Virus record (IMG/VR): IMGVR_UViG_2585427728_000001
Reading direction: 5' to 3' (one strand)
DNA: 5,017 bases
From: a virus
Lineage: Duplodnaviria; Heunggongvirae; Uroviricota; Caudoviricetes
Shown: in pieces, positions 1 through 5,017 of the stretch
Numbering within the stretch: the stretch's first letter is position 1
How the letters are laid out: every line of letters begins with the position of its first letter
Program-made: the position numbers and the translations under genes
The notes under the pieces: model-generated
Database searches by the model: none
What the model was told of the DNA's origin: nothing
Seen by the model: only the letters and a program-made list of their open reading frames with translations

Positions 1-351
1 ACTGTATGTCACGGGCATACAGGAAAAGACATCATGCTCGGTAAAACGTATACCAAAGCAGAATGCAAAGCCCTCCTGAATAAAGACCTTGCCACGGTCG
101 CCAGACAAATTAACCCGTACATCAAAGTCGATATACCGGAAACAATGCGCGGCGCTCTTTACTCATTCGTTTACAACGTGGGTGCTGGCAATTTCAGAAC
201 ATCGACGCTTCTTCGCAAAATAAACCAGGGCGATATCAAAGGCGCATGTGATCAGCTACGTCGCTGGACATATGCTGGCGGTAAGCAATGGAAAGGGCTG
301 ATGACTCGCCGTGAGATTGAGCGTGAAGTCTGTTTGTGGGGGCAGCAATGA
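1..351 (+). CDS. R: Phage endolysin, phage-21/RrrD-type lysozyme (T4-lysozyme-like, GH24); 5' end lies upstream of the window
   Basis: Frame 1 is open from nt 1 and reads [48 protein letters not shown]...[13 protein letters not shown], ending at TGA 349-351. From memory this is collinear with the C-terminal ~115 aa of phage 21 R / E. coli RrrD lysozymes. The N-terminal SAR/catalytic region is outside the window, so only the C-terminal part is seen. Confidence 0.9.
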
Positions 352-815
352 GCAGAGTAACTGCGATTATCTCCGCTCTGGTTATCTGCATCATCGTCTG
401 CCTGTCATGGGCTGTTAATCATTACCGTGATAACGCCATTACCTACAAAGCCCAGCGCGACAAAAATGTCAGAGAACTGAAGCTGGCGAACGCGGCAATT
501 ACTGACATGCAGATGCGTCAGCGTGATGTTGCTGCGCTCGATGCAAAATACACGAAGGAGTTAGCTGATGCGAAAGCTGAAAATGATGCTCTTCTGCGGA
601 AGCTTGATAATGGTGGCAGGGTGCTCGTCAAAGGAAAATGCCCTGTGCCATCCTCTGCCGAAACCTCCAGCGCCTCCGGCATGGGCAATGATGCCACCGT
701 CGAACTCTCTCCAGTTGCTGGACGAAACGTTCTCGATATCCGGGACGGAATTATCCGCGACCAAACAGCACTGAGAACGCTTCAGGAATACATTAGGACG
801 CAATGCCTTCGATGA
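348..815 (+). CDS. Rz: Rz i-spanin (inner-membrane spanin subunit)
   Basis: ATG at 348 overlaps the endolysin stop (ATGA). The product [23 protein letters not shown]... has an N-terminal transmembrane segment followed by charged, coiled-coil-like sequence ([50 protein letters not shown]) and a C-terminal cysteine. It sits directly after the endolysin and carries an embedded +1-frame lipoprotein gene, the defining Rz/Rz1 architecture. The ORF track starts at GTG 336; ATG 348 is preferred. Confidence 0.9.
568..774 (+). CDS. Rz1: Rz1 o-spanin (outer-membrane lipoprotein spanin subunit), embedded in the +1 frame of Rz
   Basis: 68-aa ORF lying entirely inside Rz in a different frame. The N-terminus [21 protein letters not shown] is a signal peptide with a lipobox (VAGC), followed by a proline-rich stretch [11 protein letters not shown] typical of Rz1. 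AGGAG lies about 7 nt upstream of the ATG at 568. The N-terminus resembles lambda Rz1 (MLKLKMML...) from memory. Confidence 0.85.
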
Positions 816-990
816 TAGCGATAATTTTACTCATCATCCTTCACATCTGGCTCTGTAGACAGGGTGGTGATCACTTCTGGAGTAAATCCAGATTAAACAT
901 CTCATTGCTGATGCTTGATATTGAGCATCTGGCGCGCAGTAAGGGGCTGCGTTGAGATAAGAGCCAGTTCATTACAAATACCAGGATTTA

Positions 991-1015
991 GCCTCGCATT
1001 CGCGGGGCTTTTTAT
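991..1015 (+). terminator. Putative rho-independent terminator downstream of the lysis cassette
   Basis: GCCTCGC-ATTC-GCGGGGC forms a 7-bp GC-rich stem (one G-U pair) with a 4-nt loop, immediately followed by TTTTTAT. It lies about 175 nt after the Rz stop and about 140 nt before the Rha start. Confidence 0.45.
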
Positions 1016-1157
1016 ATCTGAATTTCACAGCGCATCTCACGCGCATATTAACGAGAGCCTTTCAGTAAGCGAGCCTGAGAAATGCCGTTATAGGTGGCGA
1101 CCTCTCTCGGGCGGCTTTTCTGTGAGACAGGCTCACTTTCTAAAAGGTAAAGACGCT

Positions 1158-1682
1158 ATGAATAATCATTCAGTTATTCCAGCCTTCGACTTCCGAGAAA
1201 TGGTGCAAGCCAAAAACGGAGAGGTCGTTACCACATCCAGAAAAATTGCCAAGTACTTCGGCAAGCGACACGGTGATGTTCTCAGGAAAATCGAGCAGGT
1301 TAAGGCTGATTGCTCGCGTGAGTTTAGCCAACGCAATTTTGCGTCGGCTGATTATATCGATGAGCAGGGCAAGGTTCGCCCGATGTACAGCCTGACGAAA
1401 GATGGCTGGATCATGGTTGTGATGGGGTTCACCGGGAAAGCTGCTGCGGCAATCAAGGAGAGCTATATCGCAGCATTCAACTGGATGGCAGAACAACTGA
1501 GCCGCCGCATGGCAATTGGCGAAGAAATGCAGCACCGCTACGCCATCAAAGAAACACGCTCAAAGCTGAAAGGTACGATCGGCAGTCGGTTAATGAACGA
1601 ACGGAAGAAAGAGAAGCGTGTCCTGGCTGTCGAGCATGAATACATCTTGCAGGTGACACAGCCTGAACTGCTGATTAATTGA
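1158..1682 (+). CDS. rha: Rha-family phage regulatory protein (Phage_pRha domain)
   Basis: 174-aa product starting MNNHSVIPAFDFREMVQAKNGEVVTTSRKIAKYFGKRHGDVLRKIEQ...MYSLTKDGWIMVVMGFTGKAAAAIKESYIAAFNWM. The TTSRKIAKYFGKRHGDVLRKI and LTKDGW..MGFTGK..A..K..YI.AF motifs are characteristic of the Rha family. ATG 1158 follows AAAGGTAAAG. The longer ORF in the track (from 915) is a TTG-initiated extension that runs through the terminator hairpin and is rejected. Confidence 0.85.
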   Translation: MNNHSVIPAFDFREMVQAKNGEVVTTSRKIAKYFGKRHGDVLRKIEQVKADCSREFSQRNFASADYIDEQGKVRPMYSLTKDGWIMVVMGFTGKAAAAIKESYIAAFNWMAEQLSRRMAIGEEMQHRYAIKETRSKLKGTIGSRLMNERKKEKRVLAVEHEYILQVTQPELLIN

Positions 1683-1984
1683 AGATGTCATTACAAAGCC
1701 TATCTACGGGGGGCTTGATAATGGCTTATACCCTGCACGGGATAACTTAACTGATATCCCTTTTAACGGATAAAGGTATTCAAGCCTGACACATCATGCG
1801 CTGTATCGTCGCCGTATTCCCGCATTAACCATGACCGTAGCCTGACGGGGAATTCCTTCTGCGTGAGTGTGCGGGAATAATCAAAAACGATGCACACCGG
1901 GTTATTAACGCGTCAACTGAACGCGGGGTTGCTCTTCATGTCAGCCAGTCCGGTGCAGGGGTAGAAGAAACCGGACGTTATGGT

Positions 1985-2395
1985 TTAGTGTGGAAACATT
2001 TGTGATGTGCTCTGTATGTTTTCAGTAAAGAGTAATGAATTATCAAAGGTATAGTAATATCTTTTTTGTTCGTGGATATTTGTAACCCACCGAAAAACTC
2101 CTGCTTTAGCAAGGTTTCTTCTGTATTCCTGAAATGTGATCTCTCTGGATTTCAGCTTATTAGAGGTCGTTTCTATAAGATGCCTATCCTTTGAAAATTT
2201 GACAGACACAATGTTTTTTAGGCCCTTTAATAACACTGTATTATCATTTTTTAATACAATATGAACATTCTCTGTGGCTAAATAGTAAATGTAATGTGAG
2301 ACATTGTGACGTTTTAGCTCAGAATAAAACCATTGATAGTTTAAATCGTTTCGAACTTTATCAAATATTTGTTTAAAAATGACTACCTGATCCAT
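1985..2395 (-). CDS. DUF1398-family prophage protein (YdfO/YbcV-like), AT-rich cargo gene
   Basis: Minus-strand ORF. The preferred start is ATG at 2395 ([27 protein letters not shown]...), preceded by GGAAGG about 8 nt upstream, giving 136 aa. The track start at 2410 has no Shine-Dalgarno sequence. GC content is about 32% against about 58% in the terminase region. Assignment to the YdfO/YbcV (DUF1398) family is from memory of E. coli cryptic-prophage proteins and is unverified. Confidence 0.7.
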
Positions 2396-2454
2396 AGATA
2401 AACCTTCCATGTGATATGAGGGGGGGCGTAGTCTGCACGATTATCTAAATTGCT

Positions 2455-2688
2455 TCAATCTGGTCTGATCTGTTTTCTGAGCAATTCAGTAATGTCACTC
2501 TTTTCTTTGTTTGCTTCAGGAGAAACTCTTTTTTCTGAGCACAGTCTCCGGCGGCAGGCTTCAATGACCCAGGCTGAGAAATTCCCGGACCCTTTTTGAT
2601 CAAGAGCGATGTTAATTTGTTCAATCATTTGGTTAGGAAAGCGGATGTTGCGGGTTGTTGTTCTGCGGGTTCTGTTCTTCGTTGACAT
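2455..2688 (-). CDS. DUF3950-family small protein (YnfO/YlcI-like), predicted ribbon-helix-helix-like DNA-binding protein
   Basis: 77-aa minus-strand ORF: MSTKNRTRRTTTRNIRFPNQMIEQINIALDQKGSGNFSAWVIEACRRRL.... A basic N-terminal tail, a short beta-strand (NIRFP), helix (NQMIEQINIALDQ), G-x-S/N turn (KGSGN) and second helix (FSAWVIEACRRRL) fit the ribbon-helix-helix pattern. It resembles E. coli prophage YlcI/YnfO proteins from memory. Confidence 0.8.
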   Translation of the reverse strand: MSTKNRTRRTTTRNIRFPNQMIEQINIALDQKGSGNFSAWVIEACRRRLCSEKRVSPEANKEKSDITELLRKQIRPD

Positions 2689-2857
2689 GAGGTTGTCCCG
2701 TATTCAGTGTCGCTGATTTGTATTGTCTGAAGTTGTTTTTACGTTAAGTTGATGCAGATCAATTAATATGATACCTGCGTCATAATTGATTATTTGACGT
2801 GGTTTGATGGCGTAGATGCACGTTGTGACATGCAGATGATAATTATTATCATTTTGC
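2689..2857 (-). promoter_or_regulatory. AT-rich region expected to hold the promoter of the minus-strand DUF3950/DUF1398 genes; no -35/-10 assigned
   Basis: This is the only non-coding sequence upstream (minus-strand sense) of the 2688 start codon. It is AT-rich (for example TTGATGCAGATCAATTAATATGATACC, GATAATTATTATCATTTT). The same segment corresponds to the lambda right-end sequence just before cosQ. No confident promoter hexamers could be assigned by eye. Confidence 0.3.
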
Positions 2858-3070
2858 GGGTCCTTTCCGGCGATCCGACAGGTTACGGGGCGGCGACCTC
2901 GCGGGTTTTCGCTATTTATGAAAATTTTCCGGTTTAAGGCGTTTCCGTTCTTCTTCGTCGTAACTTAATGTTTTTATTTAAAATACCCTCTGAAAAGAAA
3001 GGAAGCGACAGGTGCTGAAAGCGAGCTTTTTGGCCTCTGTCGTTTCCTTTCTCTGTTTTTGTCCGTGGAA
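2858..3070. other. cos: Lambda-type cohesive end site cos (cosQ 2858-2864, cosN 2888-2899, cosB about 2900-3070)
   Basis: The sequence ...GGGTCCTTTCCGGCGATCCGACAGGTTACG|GGGCGGCGACCTCGCGGGTTTTCGCTATTTATGAAAATTTTCCGGTTTAAGGCG... matches the joined right and left ends of phage lambda as recalled. GGGTCCT is cosQ, GGGCGGCGACCT is the 12-nt cohesive end, and the following ~170 bp up to the Nu1 start correspond to cosB (Nu1 R-sites and IHF site), whose sub-sites were not mapped individually. Confidence 0.9.
2888..2899 (+). other. cosN: cosN 12-nt cohesive-end sequence GGGCGGCGACCT (terminase nicking site)
   Basis: Exact match to the lambda left cohesive end, preceded by the lambda right-end sequence GATCCGACAGGTTACG. 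Confidence 0.9.
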
Positions 3071-3076
3071 TGAACA

Positions 3077-3622
3077 ATGGAAGTCAACAAAAAGCAGCTG
3101 GCTGACATTTTCGGTGCGAGTATCCGTACCATTCAGAACTGGCAGGAACAGGGAATGCCCGTTCTGCGAGGCGGTGGCAAGGGTAATGAGGTGCTTTATG
3201 ACTCTGCCGCCGTCATAAAATGGTATGCCGAAAGGGATGCTGAAATTGAGAACGAAAAGCTGCGCCGGGAAGTTGAAGAACTGCGGCAGGCCAGCGAGAC
3301 AGATCTCCAGCCAGGGACTATTGAGTACGAACGCCATCGACTTACGCGTGCGCAGGCCGACGCACAGGAGCTGAAAAATGCCAGAGACTCCGCTGAAGTG
3401 GTGGAAACCGCATTCTGTACTTTCGTGCTGTCGCGGATCGCAGGTGAAATTGCCAGTATTCTCGACGGGATCCCCCTGTCGGTGCAGCGGCGTTTTCCGG
3501 AACTGGAAAACCGACATGTTGATTTCCTGAAACGGGATATCATCAAAGCCATGAACAAAGCAGCCGCGCTGGATGAACTGATACCGGGGTTGCTGAGTGA
3601 ATATATCGAACAGTCAGGTTAA
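3077..3622 (+). CDS. nu1: Terminase small subunit Nu1 (lambda gpNu1-like, winged-HTH cosB-binding protein)
   Basis: 181-aa product MEVNKKQLADIFGASIRTIQNWQEQGMPVLRGGGKGNEVLYDSAAVIKWYAERDAEIENEKLRREVEELRQ.... This is the same length as lambda gpNu1 and essentially collinear with it as recalled. It has an N-terminal helix-turn-helix, sits immediately downstream of cosB, and its 3' end overlaps the start of gene A by 26 nt as in lambda. Confidence 0.97.
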   Translation: MEVNKKQLADIFGASIRTIQNWQEQGMPVLRGGGKGNEVLYDSAAVIKWYAERDAEIENEKLRREVEELRQASETDLQPGTIEYERHRLTRAQADAQELKNARDSAEVVETAFCTFVLSRIAGEIASILDGIPLSVQRRFPELENRHVDFLKRDIIKAMNKAAALDELIPGLLSEYIEQSG

Positions 3623-4835
3623 CAGGCTGCGGCATTTTGTCCGCGCCGGGCTTCGCTCACTGTTCAGGCCGGAGCCACAGACCGCCGTTGAATGGGCGGA
3701 TGCCAATTACTATCTCCCAAAAGAATCCGCATACCAGGAAGGGCGCTGGGAAACACTGCCCTTTCAGCGGGCCATCATGAATGCGATGGGCAGCGACTAC
3801 ATCCGTGAGGTGAATGTGGTGAAGTCTGCCCGTGTCGGTTATTCCAAAATGCTGCTGGGTGTTTATGCCTACTTTATAGAGCATAAGCAGCGCAACACCC
3901 TTATCTGGTTGCCGACGGATGGTGATGCCGAGAACTTTATGAAAACCCACGTTGAGCCGACCATCCGCGATATTCCGTCGCTGCTGGCGCTGGCTCCGTG
4001 GTATGGCAAAAAGCACCGGGATAACACGCTCACCATGAAGCGTTTTTCCAATGGTCGTGGCTTCTGGTGCCTGGGCGGTAAAGCGGCAAAAAACTACCGT
4101 GAAAAGTCGGTGGATGTGGCGGGTTATGATGAACTTGCTGCCTTTGATGAGGATATTGAACAGGAAGGCTCTCCGACGTTCCTTGGCGACAAACGTATTG
4201 AAGGCTCGGTCTGGCCAAAGTCCATCCGTGGCTCCACGCCCAAAGTGAGAGGCACCTGCCAGATTGAGCGTGCAGCCAGTGAATCCCCGCATTTTATGCG
4301 TTTTCATGTTGCCTGCCCGCACTGCGGGGAGGAGCAGTATCTTAAATTTGGCGACAAAGAGGCGCCGTTTGGCCTCAAATGGACGCCGGATGACCCCTCC
4401 AGCGTGTTTTATCTCTGCGAGCATAATGCCTGCGTCATCCGCCAGCAGGAGCTGGACTTTACTGATGCCCGTTATATCTGCGAAAAGACCGGGATCTGGA
4501 CCCGTGATGGCATTCTCTGGTTTTCGTCATCCGGTGAAGAGATTGAGCCGCCGGACAGTGTGACCTTTCACATCTGGACGGCGTACAGCCCGTTCACCAC
4601 CTGGGTGCAGATTGTCAAAGACTGGATGAAGACGAAAGGGGATACGGGAAAACGTAAAACCTTCGTGAACACCACGCTCGGTGAGACATGGGAAGCGAAA
4701 ATTGGCGAACGTCCGGATGCTGAGGGTAAGCGACTCGTCAGAACCGTATTGATATTTACTGAGAGCTCAGATCAACTTTCCAGGGCAACAGATCGCGTAC
4801 CCGGTTTGCCGGCCAGTCCTGGATATGTTCAATGA
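3597..4835 (+). CDS. A: Terminase large subunit gpA, C-terminally truncated by an IS66-family insertion (probable pseudogene; A-derived part 3597-4724, last 36 codons read into the IS)
   Basis: MNISNSQVNRLRHFVRAGLRSLFRPEPQTAVEWADANYYLPKESAYQEGRWETLPFQRAIMNAMGSDYIREVNVVKSARVGYSKMLLG... follows lambda gpA (641 aa) as recalled, including the Walker-A-like VKSARVGYSK, up to ...GETWEAKIGERPDAE (codon 376). Lambda then continues VMAERKEHYSAP..., whereas here the frame reads GKRLVRTVLIFTESSDQLSRATDRVPGLPASPGYVQ and stops. The nucleotide sequence from 4726 onward is unrelated to lambda. Confidence 0.92.
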   Translation: MNISNSQVNRLRHFVRAGLRSLFRPEPQTAVEWADANYYLPKESAYQEGRWETLPFQRAIMNAMGSDYIREVNVVKSARVGYSKMLLGVYAYFIEHKQRNTLIWLPTDGDAENFMKTHVEPTIRDIPSLLALAPWYGKKHRDNTLTMKRFSNGRGFWCLGGKAAKNYREKSVDVAGYDELAAFDEDIEQEGSPTFLGDKRIEGSVWPKSIRGSTPKVRGTCQIERAASESPHFMRFHVACPHCGEEQYLKFGDKEAPFGLKWTPDDPSSVFYLCEHNACVIRQQELDFTDARYICEKTGIWTRDGILWFSSSGEEIEPPDSVTFHIWTAYSPFTTWVQIVKDWMKTKGDTGKRKTFVNTTLGETWEAKIGERPDAEGKRLVRTVLIFTESSDQLSRATDRVPGLPASPGYVQ

Positions 4836-5017
4836 CGTAACGCAGCCACTTTTCTGGCTCCACATTGTTCAGACGGCATGTGCCGATCAGCGAGTACAAC
4901 ACCGCCGCATGTTCACCACCGCTGTCGGAACCCGCGAACATCCAGTTTTTCCGGCCTACGGCCACTCCCCGTAAGGCGTTCTCTGCGATGTTGTTGTCGA
5001 TTTCCACCCAGCCATTA
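4726..5017 (-). mobile_element. IS66-family insertion sequence, one terminus plus the 3' end of its transposase gene; the element continues beyond the window
   Basis: Homology to lambda A ends at 4724-4725. The new sequence starts GTAAGCGACTCGTCAGAACCG..., and GTAAGCG is recalled as the typical start of IS66-family terminal inverted repeats. The minus-strand ORF 4756-5017 encodes an IS66 TnpC-like C-terminus. The boundary is uncertain by about 2 nt, and the other IS end and any 8-bp target duplication are outside the window. Confidence 0.85.
4756..5017 (-). CDS. IS66-family transposase (TnpC-like), C-terminal fragment; the 5' part of the gene lies beyond the window end
   Basis: The minus-strand frame is open to the window edge (...NGWVEIDNNIAENALRGVAVGRKNWMFAGSDSGGEHAAVLYSLIGTCRLNNVEPEKWLRYVIEHIQDWPANRVRDLLPWKVDLSSQ, stop at 4756-4758). 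The NxAEnALRxxAVGRKNWxFAGSxxGGExAAxxYSLI motif is typical of IS66-family transposase C-termini. The M at 5007 in the track is an artefactual GTG start. Confidence 0.9.
   Translation of the reverse strand, partial: NGWVEIDNNIAENALRGVAVGRKNWMFAGSDSGGEHAAVLYSLIGTCRLNNVEPEKWLRYVIEHIQDWPANRVRDLLPWKVDLSSQ

Follow-up and report, generated by a model that had tools for sequence, protein, structure and literature searches.

The right end of the bacteriophage lambda genome carries a ylcI open reading frame (ORF) followed by lambdap79, lambdap78, and bor, and prophage DLP12 carries the series ylcI-ybcW-ybcV-borD. In the Qin prophage of Escherichia coli K-12, a gene of the DUF3950 family, ynfO (b4533), and one of the DUF1398 family, ydfO (b1549), lie beside nohA, a homologue of Nu1. 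Nearly all E. coli genomes contain at least one of these genes, and lambda, the best-studied phage, has both; yet they were still uncharacterized in a 2024 survey of the y-ome (PMC11551758), in keeping with the original prediction for the locus described here, according to which neither family has a defined function.

The DUF1398 gene of lambda, lambdap78, is non-essential by CRISPRi (PMC10695390), and acquisition of the Qin-type module left lambda escape mutants viable (bioRxiv 10.64898/2026.09.04.749371). Ionic liquid raises the level of ydfO mRNA 12-fold as measured with arrays and 117-fold as measured by qPCR (PMC4077768). The sole phenotype published for YdfO, an increased resistance to oxidative stress, stems from a gene-name mix-up with YfdO of CPS-53. 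As for the listing of ydfO as "essential only by TraDIS," repeat mapping or AT-rich DNA could be its cause.

Location and conservation of the two genes

We analyzed a stretch of 5,017 nucleotides of viral DNA (IMG/VR record IMGVR_UViG_2585427728_000001), referred to here as the window. Both ORFs were found where the original prediction had placed them, on the minus strand between the lysis cassette (Rz/Rha) and cosN and antisense to R, Rz, Rha, Nu1, and gpA (Table 1). The family assignments also held. The 77-aa protein matched Pfam DUF3950 (PF13132) with 74.8 bits (cut-off, 25) and NCBIfam YlcI_YnfO_N (NF041551) with 35.7 bits (cut-off, 30), and was 96% identical to K-12 YnfO. The second protein matched Pfam DUF1398 (PF07166) with 157.6 bits (cut-off, 22) over profile positions 1 to 119 of 119 and shared ~97% identity with the YdfO sequence in PDB 2HH8, a solution NMR structure; it belongs to the fold solved there. 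Judged by these similarities, the pair is not new but corresponds to ynfO and ydfO, which have long been annotated in E. coli prophages.

Table 1. Features of the ynfO-ydfO locus (window coordinates)
Feature	Position	Strand	Description
Conserved non-coding block	1797..1984	-	Directly 3' of the DUF1398 stop codon; probably non-coding
ydfO-type gene	1985..2395	-	136-aa DUF1398 protein; 31.4% GC
Gap between the two genes	2396..2454	-	59 bp
ynfO-type gene	2455..2688	-	77-aa basic DUF3950 (YlcI/YnfO family) protein
PdhR-type box position (AACAGATCAGACCAGAT)	2458..2474	-	Overlaps the last ynfO codons
Mosaic junction	2472..2525		54 bp; codes for part of the YnfO C-terminal tail
cosN-to-ynfO-start region	2689..2887	-	199 bp; 37% GC
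cosN 12-nt cohesive-end sequence	2888..2899	+	Exact GGGCGGCGACCT match

The DUF1398 ORF runs from 2410 to 1985 (141 aa), or encodes 136 aa from the ATG at 2395, the start chosen by RefSeq, which has a GGAAGG Shine-Dalgarno sequence 7 to 8 nt upstream. With the 136-aa start, the spacing between the two genes is that originally predicted. The 1.4-kb region had 100% identity to four E. coli chromosomes, and 4,969 of the 5,426 complete E. coli genomes (~90%) matched it; thus, both genes are genuine and conserved, and chance ORFs are excluded. The DUF3950 gene has a GC content of 44.0%, and the values for Nu1 and gpA are 52.7% and 53.9%, respectively. The predicted low GC content of the DUF1398 gene was accordingly borne out, whereas the terminase value of about 58% given with it was too high. 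The match of cosN to GGGCGGCGACCT was exact, with 0 expected by chance, which makes ynfO the gene closest to the right end of the mature phage DNA.

Comparison with Qin, lambda, DLP12, and other phages

The Qin module of K-12 has the same gene order (nohA, ynfO, ydfO), orientation, and spacing as the window, the DNA being 97.4% identical over 1,660 bp and the encoded proteins 96% and ~97% identical. The differences are a few substitutions, one of which breaks the GGT core of a PdhR-type box in the window, and the genes lying downstream, namely, the Rha gene and the lysis cassette in the window and gnsB, ynfN, and cspI in Qin. The complete phage PhiR70_1 carries the same Qin-type module.

The likeness to lambda and DLP12 is interrupted. 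The N-terminal 54 residues of the DUF3950 protein and the upstream region as far as cos were 95 to 98% identical, and the DUF1398 cassette was ~80% identical, including 76 bp upstream and ~190 bp downstream of the gene. However, in both relatives a 613-bp insert with an opposite-strand gene (lambdap79 in lambda, ybcW in DLP12) separates the two genes, which are 600 to 650 bp apart; the DUF3950 protein has 64 aa and ends in a different tail; and bor lies downstream. According to the blastn breakpoints and the lambda ORFs, the 54-bp mosaic junction of the window stands in place of this 613-bp segment. The ylcI ORF of lambda is intact (64 aa; 48109 to 48303, complement) but is missing from the reference annotation. 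The two genes had originally been taken for additions at the place where lambda carries bor, a view that has to be abandoned, since lambda itself has homologues of both.

In the Stx phage BP-4795, the DUF3950 gene lies in mid-genome between Rz and an HNH/terminase module; unrelated sequence replaces window positions 1976 to 2547, including the DUF1398 gene, and homology is kept on both flanks. In phage ev207, ylcI is followed by bor, and there is no DUF1398 gene. P4-like satellites contain DUF3950 ORFs that score above the Pfam cut-off and adjoin icd-primase. Thus, the DUF1398 gene combines a deviant GC content (31.4%, versus 44 to 54% in its flanks) with presence or absence between discrete boundaries among related phages, as shown by BP-4795 and ev207. 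These are features expected of a moron, and they uphold the prediction of an AT-rich, horizontally mobile gene.

Separability of the two genes

By tblastn, 155 phage records had DUF3950 and 43 had DUF1398. Co-occurrence across genomes, the lack of which had been named in advance as evidence against a functional pair, was therefore largely wanting: at least 112 phage records had DUF3950 but no DUF1398, and DUF3950 stands on its own in Stx phages, ev207, and P4-like satellites. Conversely, DUF1398 was found without DUF3950 in about 30 chromosomal loci, and homologues with 25 to 50% identity (ycgX and those of Citrobacter, Kluyvera, Pseudocitrobacter, and Salmonella) had no DUF3950 gene within 4 kb. 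Among Qin-type loci, the two genes were adjacent in 79 of 80 cases (viral contigs, DUF3950-seeded scan), but this is not independent evidence because the scan returned near-identical loci only. Within the Qin-type module, ynfO and ydfO may be co-transcribed, given the 59-bp gap and the absence of a terminator, and a functional link between YnfO and YdfO may exist there.

The pair had been likened to toxin-antitoxin or phage-exclusion cassettes, and the resemblance did not withstand these comparisons. The co-inheritance typical of type II toxin-antitoxin systems was not seen (155 versus 43 records, each gene being found alone), nor was the arrangement that of a tightly coupled bicistronic operon, with 59 bp between the genes here and ~650 bp plus an opposite-strand gene in lambda and DLP12. 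A scan of PADLOC-DB 2.0 gave no match for YnfO, only a chance-level match to Csx23 for YdfO (E = 0.013, 13.5 bits), and nothing usable for Rha. The pair thus behaves like two separable accessory genes and not like a toxin-antitoxin or defence pair.

In particular, a type II system with YnfO as a ribbon-helix-helix (RHH) antitoxin and YdfO as the toxin is highly improbable. It would agree with a small RHH-like protein being encoded upstream of a larger one and with weak profile matches of YnfO to the DNA-binding domain of HicB-like antitoxins. It is contradicted, however, by the occurrence of each widespread gene without the other, by the separation of the lambda and DLP12 copies, and by a lambdoid locus that keeps ybcV together with a truncated ylcI. 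Furthermore, YdfO resembles no toxin family, and its production alone for NMR (2HH8) suggests that it is tolerated in E. coli.

The DUF3950 protein

In agreement with the prediction of a small, basic first protein, the ynfO product has a pI of 10.6 and a net charge of +8. Residues ~12 to 54 constitute a predicted CopG-like RHH core, which is moderately supported by profile comparisons. When the YnfO profile was aligned by hhalign with 120 CopG-family (PF01402) proteins, a target chosen post hoc as the best PDB match, the probability was 61.6% (P = 7.8e-5) and the score was 25.9, compared with 9.2 ± 2.1 (maximum, 16.2) for 100 column shuffles. The sole PDB profile match was a CopG-family RHH protein (E = 0.38), and the PHROG profile matches were weak and of the HicB-like (best, 1.4e-4) and Arc-like types. 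A TNF ligand match obtained with a first, narrow profile against PDB was at chance level and was discarded.

No Pfam RHH model matched YnfO, and PDB sequence searches with the single sequences of YnfO and a satellite homologue returned nothing. The AlphaFold2 monomer, of low confidence (pLDDT 66.7), has helices at residues 19 to 32 and 34 to 53, an unstructured segment at residues 1 to 18, and no strand; the N-terminal strand of an RHH fold would form only in the dimer. The best Foldseek matches of this model, a TCP domain and ParD2, both of which we take to be of the RHH type, were non-significant (E of at least 4.9). Hence, the RHH-like character attributed to the protein finds backing in its CopG/HicB-like profile similarity, which stays below the level of a family assignment, and in the two helices of the model, whose lack of a predicted strand counts against it. 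For its part, the C-terminal tail (residues ~55 to 77) differs from phage to phage. Taken as a whole, these data make YnfO a good candidate for a DNA-binding regulator.

The DUF1398 protein

YdfO is an alpha/beta protein with two helix-helix-strand-strand-strand repeats. Its fold is isolated. None of its relatives has a known function, and neither a catalytic or known effector fold nor a resemblance to a toxin family was found. The protein is hydrophilic (GRAVY, -0.56) and soluble, without a signal peptide or membrane segment, and it is cytoplasmic. Its length and the motifs YIYYLATxN and AGVF(R/K)W are kept in ycgX, the neighbour of bluR in E. coli, and in the orphan DUF1398 genes that occur in Kluyvera, Pseudocitrobacter, Citrobacter, and Salmonella diarizonae. 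These members of the family are 25 to 50% identical and solitary, with neither a DUF3950 neighbour nor a lambdoid context. Such diverged homologues adjoin housekeeping genes and not defence islands.

These properties bear on two other interpretations. One is a regulator-effector pair for exclusion or defence, in which YnfO would repress or sense and YdfO would block superinfecting phages. The site is indeed a known hotspot of lysogen-expressed prophage genes, beside bor; the genes are adjacent on the same strand in Qin-type modules; the DUF1398 gene is AT-rich and mobile; and a defence system is triggered by the neighbouring lambdap79. Nevertheless, this interpretation is improbable in view of the non-conserved pairing, the lack of any PADLOC match beyond the chance-level one, the absence of a catalytic or known effector fold from DUF1398, and the chromosomal setting of the diverged homologues; no such phenotype was found in the literature searched.

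The other is a role in the virion or envelope, which comes from annotation strings: lambdap78 is labeled "head protein" in RefSeq lambda and in PHROG 413 and also "putative envelope protein." We found no basis for these labels. Besides lying antisense to the late operon, the gene is non-essential in lambda, and many lambda-like phages that share these heads lack it; the protein is soluble and has no export or membrane features. A structural role is effectively refuted on these grounds and is hardly credible.

Putative control elements

Alignment of the 59-bp gap with the Qin and DLP12 upstream regions revealed, besides the GGAAGG ribosome-binding site, a C-tract of variable length and a conserved GATAAT hexamer (2445 to 2440), a candidate -10 element. 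A consensus scan of positions 1650 to 3100 detected no sigma-70 promoter on the minus strand, including the region upstream of ynfO and the gap, and the terminator scan of the same interval gave weak terminator-like hairpins only. Rfam yielded no match over the whole window.

The core of the PdhR-type box is GGTCAGACC in Qin, DLP12, and lambda, where it lies 62 to 78 nt upstream of the DUF1398 start codon, and is mutated to GATCAGACC in the window. PdhR genomic-SELEX peaks have been reported at ybcV/ybcW and at ydfO, and ybcV mRNA is 10-fold lower in a pdhR mutant (PMC7660256). The conserved position of the box and its link with PdhR speak for a control element belonging to the cassette itself; the mutated box of the window counts against it.

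The region between cosN and ynfO is strongly conserved in lambda, Qin, and DLP12 and has a cosQ-like GGGTCCT at about 2859 to 2866. It contains two perfect 8-nt inverted repeats (2 versus 0.076 expected; P ~0.012), one formed by 2758 to 2765 and 2783 to 2790 and the other, a palindrome, by 2836 to 2843 and 2845 to 2852; both are candidate promoter or operator sequences. On the other side of the pair, the block at 1797 to 1984 is common to lambda, DLP12, and BP-4795, in which it directly follows the DUF3950 gene, and is probably non-coding because lambda and DLP12 differ in it by a 1-nt indel. A long hairpin with one or two compensatory pairs was predicted for this ~190-nt block, and its folding energy was no better than that of shuffled sequences on either strand.

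The right cohesive end of lambda enters the cell first, and leading-end anti-defence genes exist in T7, T5, and conjugative plasmids. The two genes read inward from that end and might therefore be transcribed first upon infection, for example, for anti-defence or host takeover. Both lie within about 0.2 to 0.9 kb of the right cohesive end, the ynfO start codon being 199 bp from cosN with transcription running away from it, and this genome-end position is kept in lambda, Qin, and DLP12. Yet the promoter scan found none, the BP-4795 copy is in mid-genome beside a different packaging module, lambdap78 is non-essential, no anti-defence family was matched, and chromosomal copies of DUF1398 such as ycgX clash with an infection-only role. 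Such early genes are, in consequence, very unlikely.

Discussion

The explanation we favor, although we give it only an even chance of being right, is that the locus is the Qin-type version of a right-end accessory (moron) array of the lambda family, made up of two separable units. The genes of the window are orthologues of K-12 ynfO-ydfO and paralogues of ylcI and ybcV (lambdap78) of lambda and DLP12. In such an array ynfO is the constant element: it always comes first on the strand opposite the late operon, and the first packaging gene diverges from it. The first ~54 residues of its product would form a CopG/HicB-like RHH, and YnfO most likely dimerizes and binds DNA as a transcription regulator.

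The cargo that follows ynfO varies: in the window it is YdfO; in lambda, ybcW, ybcV, and bor; in ev207, only bor; and in BP-4795 there is none. The YdfO gene is an AT-rich, independently mobile cassette that brings along 76 bp of upstream DNA containing a PdhR-type box. Lytic growth does not require the cassette, and it is probably expressed by the prophage, where it may alter host physiology.

A broader interpretation, which we consider unlikely, is that DUF3950 is a widely conserved but so far unrecognised RHH regulator, shared by temperate coliphages and P4-like satellites, that controls transcription across the adjoining junction or of the cargo, and that DUF1398 is a new nucleic-acid-binding or host-modulating effector. 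DUF3950 would then always diverge from a key operon, either the packaging genes of two unrelated terminase modules or the icd-primase of satellites, and DUF1398 would be a basic protein with its own fold used by the prophage.

The two genes should be studied as separable units and not as a toxin-antitoxin or defence pair. The general view of prophage biology is unchanged unless a function is found.

With respect to known systems, YnfO resembles the CopG/Arc/MetJ RHH proteins, including the C-terminal domain of HicB, in the succession of strand, helix, G-x-S/N turn, and helix predicted from the profile alignment, with 44 columns in register, as well as in its small size and basic character. It differs from them in that the similarity is visible at the profile level only and in its tails, the N-terminal one being additional and rich in Arg/Thr and the C-terminal one variable. 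The ydfO cassette, for its part, resembles the bor and lom morons of lambda in lying between functional modules, antisense to late transcription, with deviant composition and variable presence. The difference lies in the product: Bor is a lipoprotein with a serum-resistance phenotype, whereas YdfO is cytoplasmic.

Prophage setting and gene order

The window is part of an Escherichia coli lambdoid prophage. Positions 1-4725 showed 99.96% identity to a prophage of strain HS30-1, and the segment 1700-3100 was 100% identical in four chromosomes and was matched in 4969 of 5426 complete E. coli genomes. The two minus-strand genes originally predicted, encoding DUF3950 (YnfO) and DUF1398 (YdfO) proteins, were confirmed as open reading frames (ORFs). 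Homology to the intact HS30-1 prophage ended exactly at 4725, where gpA (the terminase large subunit gene) is broken by an IS66-family element; thus, this prophage copy is unable to package DNA. On the late strand, a Rha gene and a 50-aa ORF lie between Rz and the accessory genes, where lambda has bor, which again points to a cargo hotspot at this junction.

Features of the window and counterparts in related loci (window coordinates unless a handle is named: L002, K-12 Qin; L003, DLP12; L149, lambda right end; L150, Stx phage BP-4795)
Feature	Position	Strand	Remarks
Lysozyme R	34-351	+
Rz	336-815	+
Small 50-aa ORF	803-955	+	RefSeq "hypothetical protein"
Rha-family regulator or antirepressor	1158-1682	+
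Non-coding block, ~190 nt	1797-1984; L149 1469-1650; L003 5010-5192; L150 3902-4081		~80% conserved
DUF1398 ORF, 136 aa	2395-1985	-	Between Rha and cos
PdhR-type box	2458-2474; L002 5971-5987; L003 5657-5673; L149 2115-2131		Intact in Qin, DLP12 and lambda; mutated in window
DUF3950 (YlcI/YnfO) ORF, 77 aa	2688-2455	-	Family match; between Rha and cos
cosN	2888-2899	+	GGGCGGCGACCT
Nu1	3077-3622	+
gpA	From 3597, cut at 4726	+	Cut by IS66-family element
IS66-family element	4726-5017		End begins GTAAGCG; interrupts gpA
IS66-family transposase C-terminus	4756-5007	-

The DUF1398 ORF has an alternative in-frame ATG at 2410, which would give 141 aa. The 136-aa start is favored by RefSeq and by a GGAAGG ribosome-binding site, and with it the intergenic gap is 59 bp, as had been claimed. 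The claimed contrast in base composition was also real, the GC content being 31.4% in the DUF1398 gene and 44.0% in the DUF3950 gene versus 52.7% in Nu1 and 53.9% in gpA, but the terminase figure of about 58% was too high. A 233-aa DUF3950-DUF1398 "fusion" (P0121) represents a large protein cluster. The site concerned is window 2420-2455: the fused frame results from the ynfO stop codon (TGA) having been translated as Trp and from a difference of one base in the intergenic C-tract, whose length is 7 C here versus 5 in K-12 Qin. It is most likely a gene-calling artefact.

The small protein YnfO

The conserved core of YnfO comprises residues 1-54, the tail beyond differing between the Qin-type module (adjacent genes) and the lambda/DLP12-type module (a gene inserted between them). 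The core reads IRFPNQMIEQINIALxQKGSGNFSAWVIEACRRRL, which is the classical ribbon-helix-helix (RHH) succession of strand, helix, G-x-S/N turn and helix; the tests of this fold were moderately supportive. The RHH part of a HicB-like PHROG was matched by four of five DUF3950 family members (best E=1.4e-4), and an Arc-like PHROG by two (E=0.2-0.4). The sole match of the family profile among all PDB sequences was a CopG-family RHH protein, at E=0.38, with the alignment in register across the whole motif. When the family was compared by hhalign with 120 relatives of that protein, most of them with PF01402, a probability of 62% (P=7.8e-5) and a score of 25.9 were obtained, versus a mean of 9.2+/-2.1 and a maximum of 16.2 for 100 column-shuffled controls. 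The AlphaFold2 monomer, of low confidence (pLDDT 67), showed helices at 19-32 and 34-53 and an unstructured N-terminus, which would fit a strand that forms only in the dimer. Its best Foldseek matches, below significance, were a TCP domain and ParD2, both RHH-type. An RHH fold is thus probable for YnfO, and the protein may bind DNA; it would dimerize as an RHH protein and regulate the transcription of its own unit or of neighboring operons.

The larger protein YdfO

YdfO is soluble, hydrophilic and basic (pI 9.6), and its sequence is ∼97% identical to the one in the YdfO solution NMR structure (PDB 2HH8). The AlphaFold2 model, of high confidence (pLDDT 88.7), consisted of two helix-helix-strand-strand-strand repeats and had no match at E<=0.001 in the viral structure library. 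When 1.84 billion cluster representatives were scanned exhaustively with HMMER, only 196 clusters matched, many of them fragments, and the true hosts in the genome scan were Enterobacteriaceae only. The lambda right end also appeared in dozens of assemblies of unrelated taxa, on contigs of ∼3.5 kb or ∼48.5 kb (e.g., Kitasatospora, Brevibacillus, Flavobacterium, Cohnella, Bradyrhizobium and Arcanobacterium "plasmids"), which looks like contamination with lambda control or spike-in DNA and not the actual distribution. A record named "Campylobacter phage" is lambda-like too.

Many phage records and PHROGs label the DUF1398 gene "head protein" or "putative envelope protein" (lambdap78, PHROG 413). 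These labels are unsupported: the gene lies antisense to the late operon, encodes a soluble protein and is missing from many lambda-like phages, and lambdap78 is non-essential in lambda by CRISPRi (PMC10695390).

Functional pair or separable genes

The original prediction likened the two genes to a toxin-antitoxin or phage-exclusion cassette. They were adjacent in 79 of 80 viral-contig loci, but these loci are near-identical and hence not independent evidence. Lambdoid-type DUF1398 copies with enough flank all had DUF3950 upstream, bar one with a truncated ylcI. Co-occurrence did not hold more widely: by tblastn, DUF3950 was found in 155 phage records versus 43 for DUF1398, and DUF3950 was absent from the 4 kb around all diverged DUF1398 homologues (among them ycgX-type genes, 44-50% identity, and Kluyvera, Pseudocitrobacter and Salmonella genes, 25-39%). 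In BP-4795 a solitary DUF3950 gene is flanked by Rz and an HNH/terminase module that is unrelated, and in ev207 bor comes after the gene. P4-like satellites of Klebsiella and Pasteurella carry DUF3950 ORFs above the Pfam cut-off, adjoining icd-primase genes (PMC13612085). Neither protein had a defense-system match in a PADLOC scan or a toxin-like fold. This separability, together with the upstream element that the DUF1398 cassette has of its own (see below), the lack of a PADLOC match and the lack of a toxin-like fold, argues against a toxin-antitoxin or dedicated defense pair. What stands of the earlier reading is an RHH-like fold and mobile, AT-rich cargo of unknown function. The minus-strand array at the lysis/packaging junction has a constant head, the DUF3950 gene, and otherwise varies; the AT-rich DUF1398 cassette is one of its optional parts.

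Two P4-like/PICI-type satellites have a DUF3950 ORF that lacks annotation (L152 2501-2704, plus strand; L151 2426-2680, plus strand). The satellite ORFs lie antisense within long annotated ORFs (324 and 224 aa), one named "transcriptional repressor"; since conservation of the long ORFs is confined to their C-terminal ends, a short icd-like gene was probably called too long in these cases.

In the window, lambda, DLP12 and BP-4795, the minus-strand genes are followed at their 3' end by the ∼190-nt block; the stretch after ydfO in the window (1796-1975) comes directly after the DUF3950 gene in BP-4795. The long hairpin predicted by RNAalifold, UUAUUCCCGC...GCGGGAAUA, contains one or two compensatory pairs; the block folded no more stably than shuffled sequences, and an Rfam match was absent. 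A coding role is disfavored by a 1-nt indel that distinguishes lambda from DLP12.

Upstream element and expression

Qin, DLP12 and lambda have a palindromic core, GGTCAGACC, 62-78 nt before the DUF1398 start codon, at the very limit of the shared 76-bp block. It coincides with PdhR sites from genomic SELEX, and ybcV mRNA is 10-fold lower in a pdhR mutant (PMC7660256). The core is mutated to GATCAGACC in the window, where a G-to-A change, which also results in V74I in YnfO, breaks the box, so that this copy may have escaped PdhR control. The 199-bp stretch that separates cosN from ynfO contains two perfect 8-nt inverted repeats (expected, 0.076; P ∼0.012), which are candidate operators; as the whole region is conserved, their conservation adds nothing. 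A consensus promoter scan yielded none for the proposed lysogenic transcript. Prophage expression of YdfO would be tied to certain conditions: ydfO mRNA rises strongly with imidazolium ionic liquid (PMC4077768); it also changes on DicC overexpression.

No function for DUF3950 or DUF1398 was reported in the literature searched, and ynfO and ydfO are on a 2024 uncharacterized list (PMC11551758). YdfO overexpression has been said to raise oxidative-stress resistance (PMC4077768, citing Wang et al. 2010). The cited work (PMC3105296) never mentions ydfO, its subject being YfdO of prophage CPS-53, and the claim was rejected as a ydfO/yfdO name mix-up. The SrsR paper (PMC9181523) likewise prints ydfO at a point where the text itself concerns the yfdO-yfdP spacer.

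Relation to Qin, DLP12 and lambda

The two window genes are ynfO and ydfO of the Qin prophage (E. coli K-12), with 74 of the 77 YnfO residues identical and the same order nohA, ynfO, ydfO. Both genes were already known and are nearly universal in E. coli. DLP12 contains the paralogous set ylcI, ybcW (opposite strand), ybcV and borD, and lambda has the same arrangement, with lambdap79 as the ybcW homologue and lambdap78 as the DUF1398 gene. Lambda also has an intact 64-aa YlcI/DUF3950 ORF (NC_001416 48109-48303, complement; L149 2710-2904), identical to DLP12 YlcI in the alignment. This ORF has no annotated feature in the reference record, and several other lambda-like records likewise have none. 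The interest left is that two phage lambda genes are still without an assigned function.

The relations between modules were drawn from blastn breakpoints of the window versus lambda and DLP12. Window 2526-2887, from the first 54 DUF3950 codons through to cos, was 95-98% identical to both, and 1797-2471, with the DUF1398 gene, 76 bp upstream and ∼190 bp downstream, was ∼80% identical. Where the window has 54 bp, lambda has a 613-bp segment holding lambdap79 (L149 2339-2545), which is absent from the window and activates the Vulcan NADase defense. Lambda mutants that escape Vulcan lost lambdap79 via recombination with Qin, thus swapping to the Qin-type module, the arrangement of the window (2026 preprint, bioRxiv 10.64898/2026.09.04.749371). 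The Qin-type module is thus functional in a viable phage, and the complete phage PhiR70_1 also has it.
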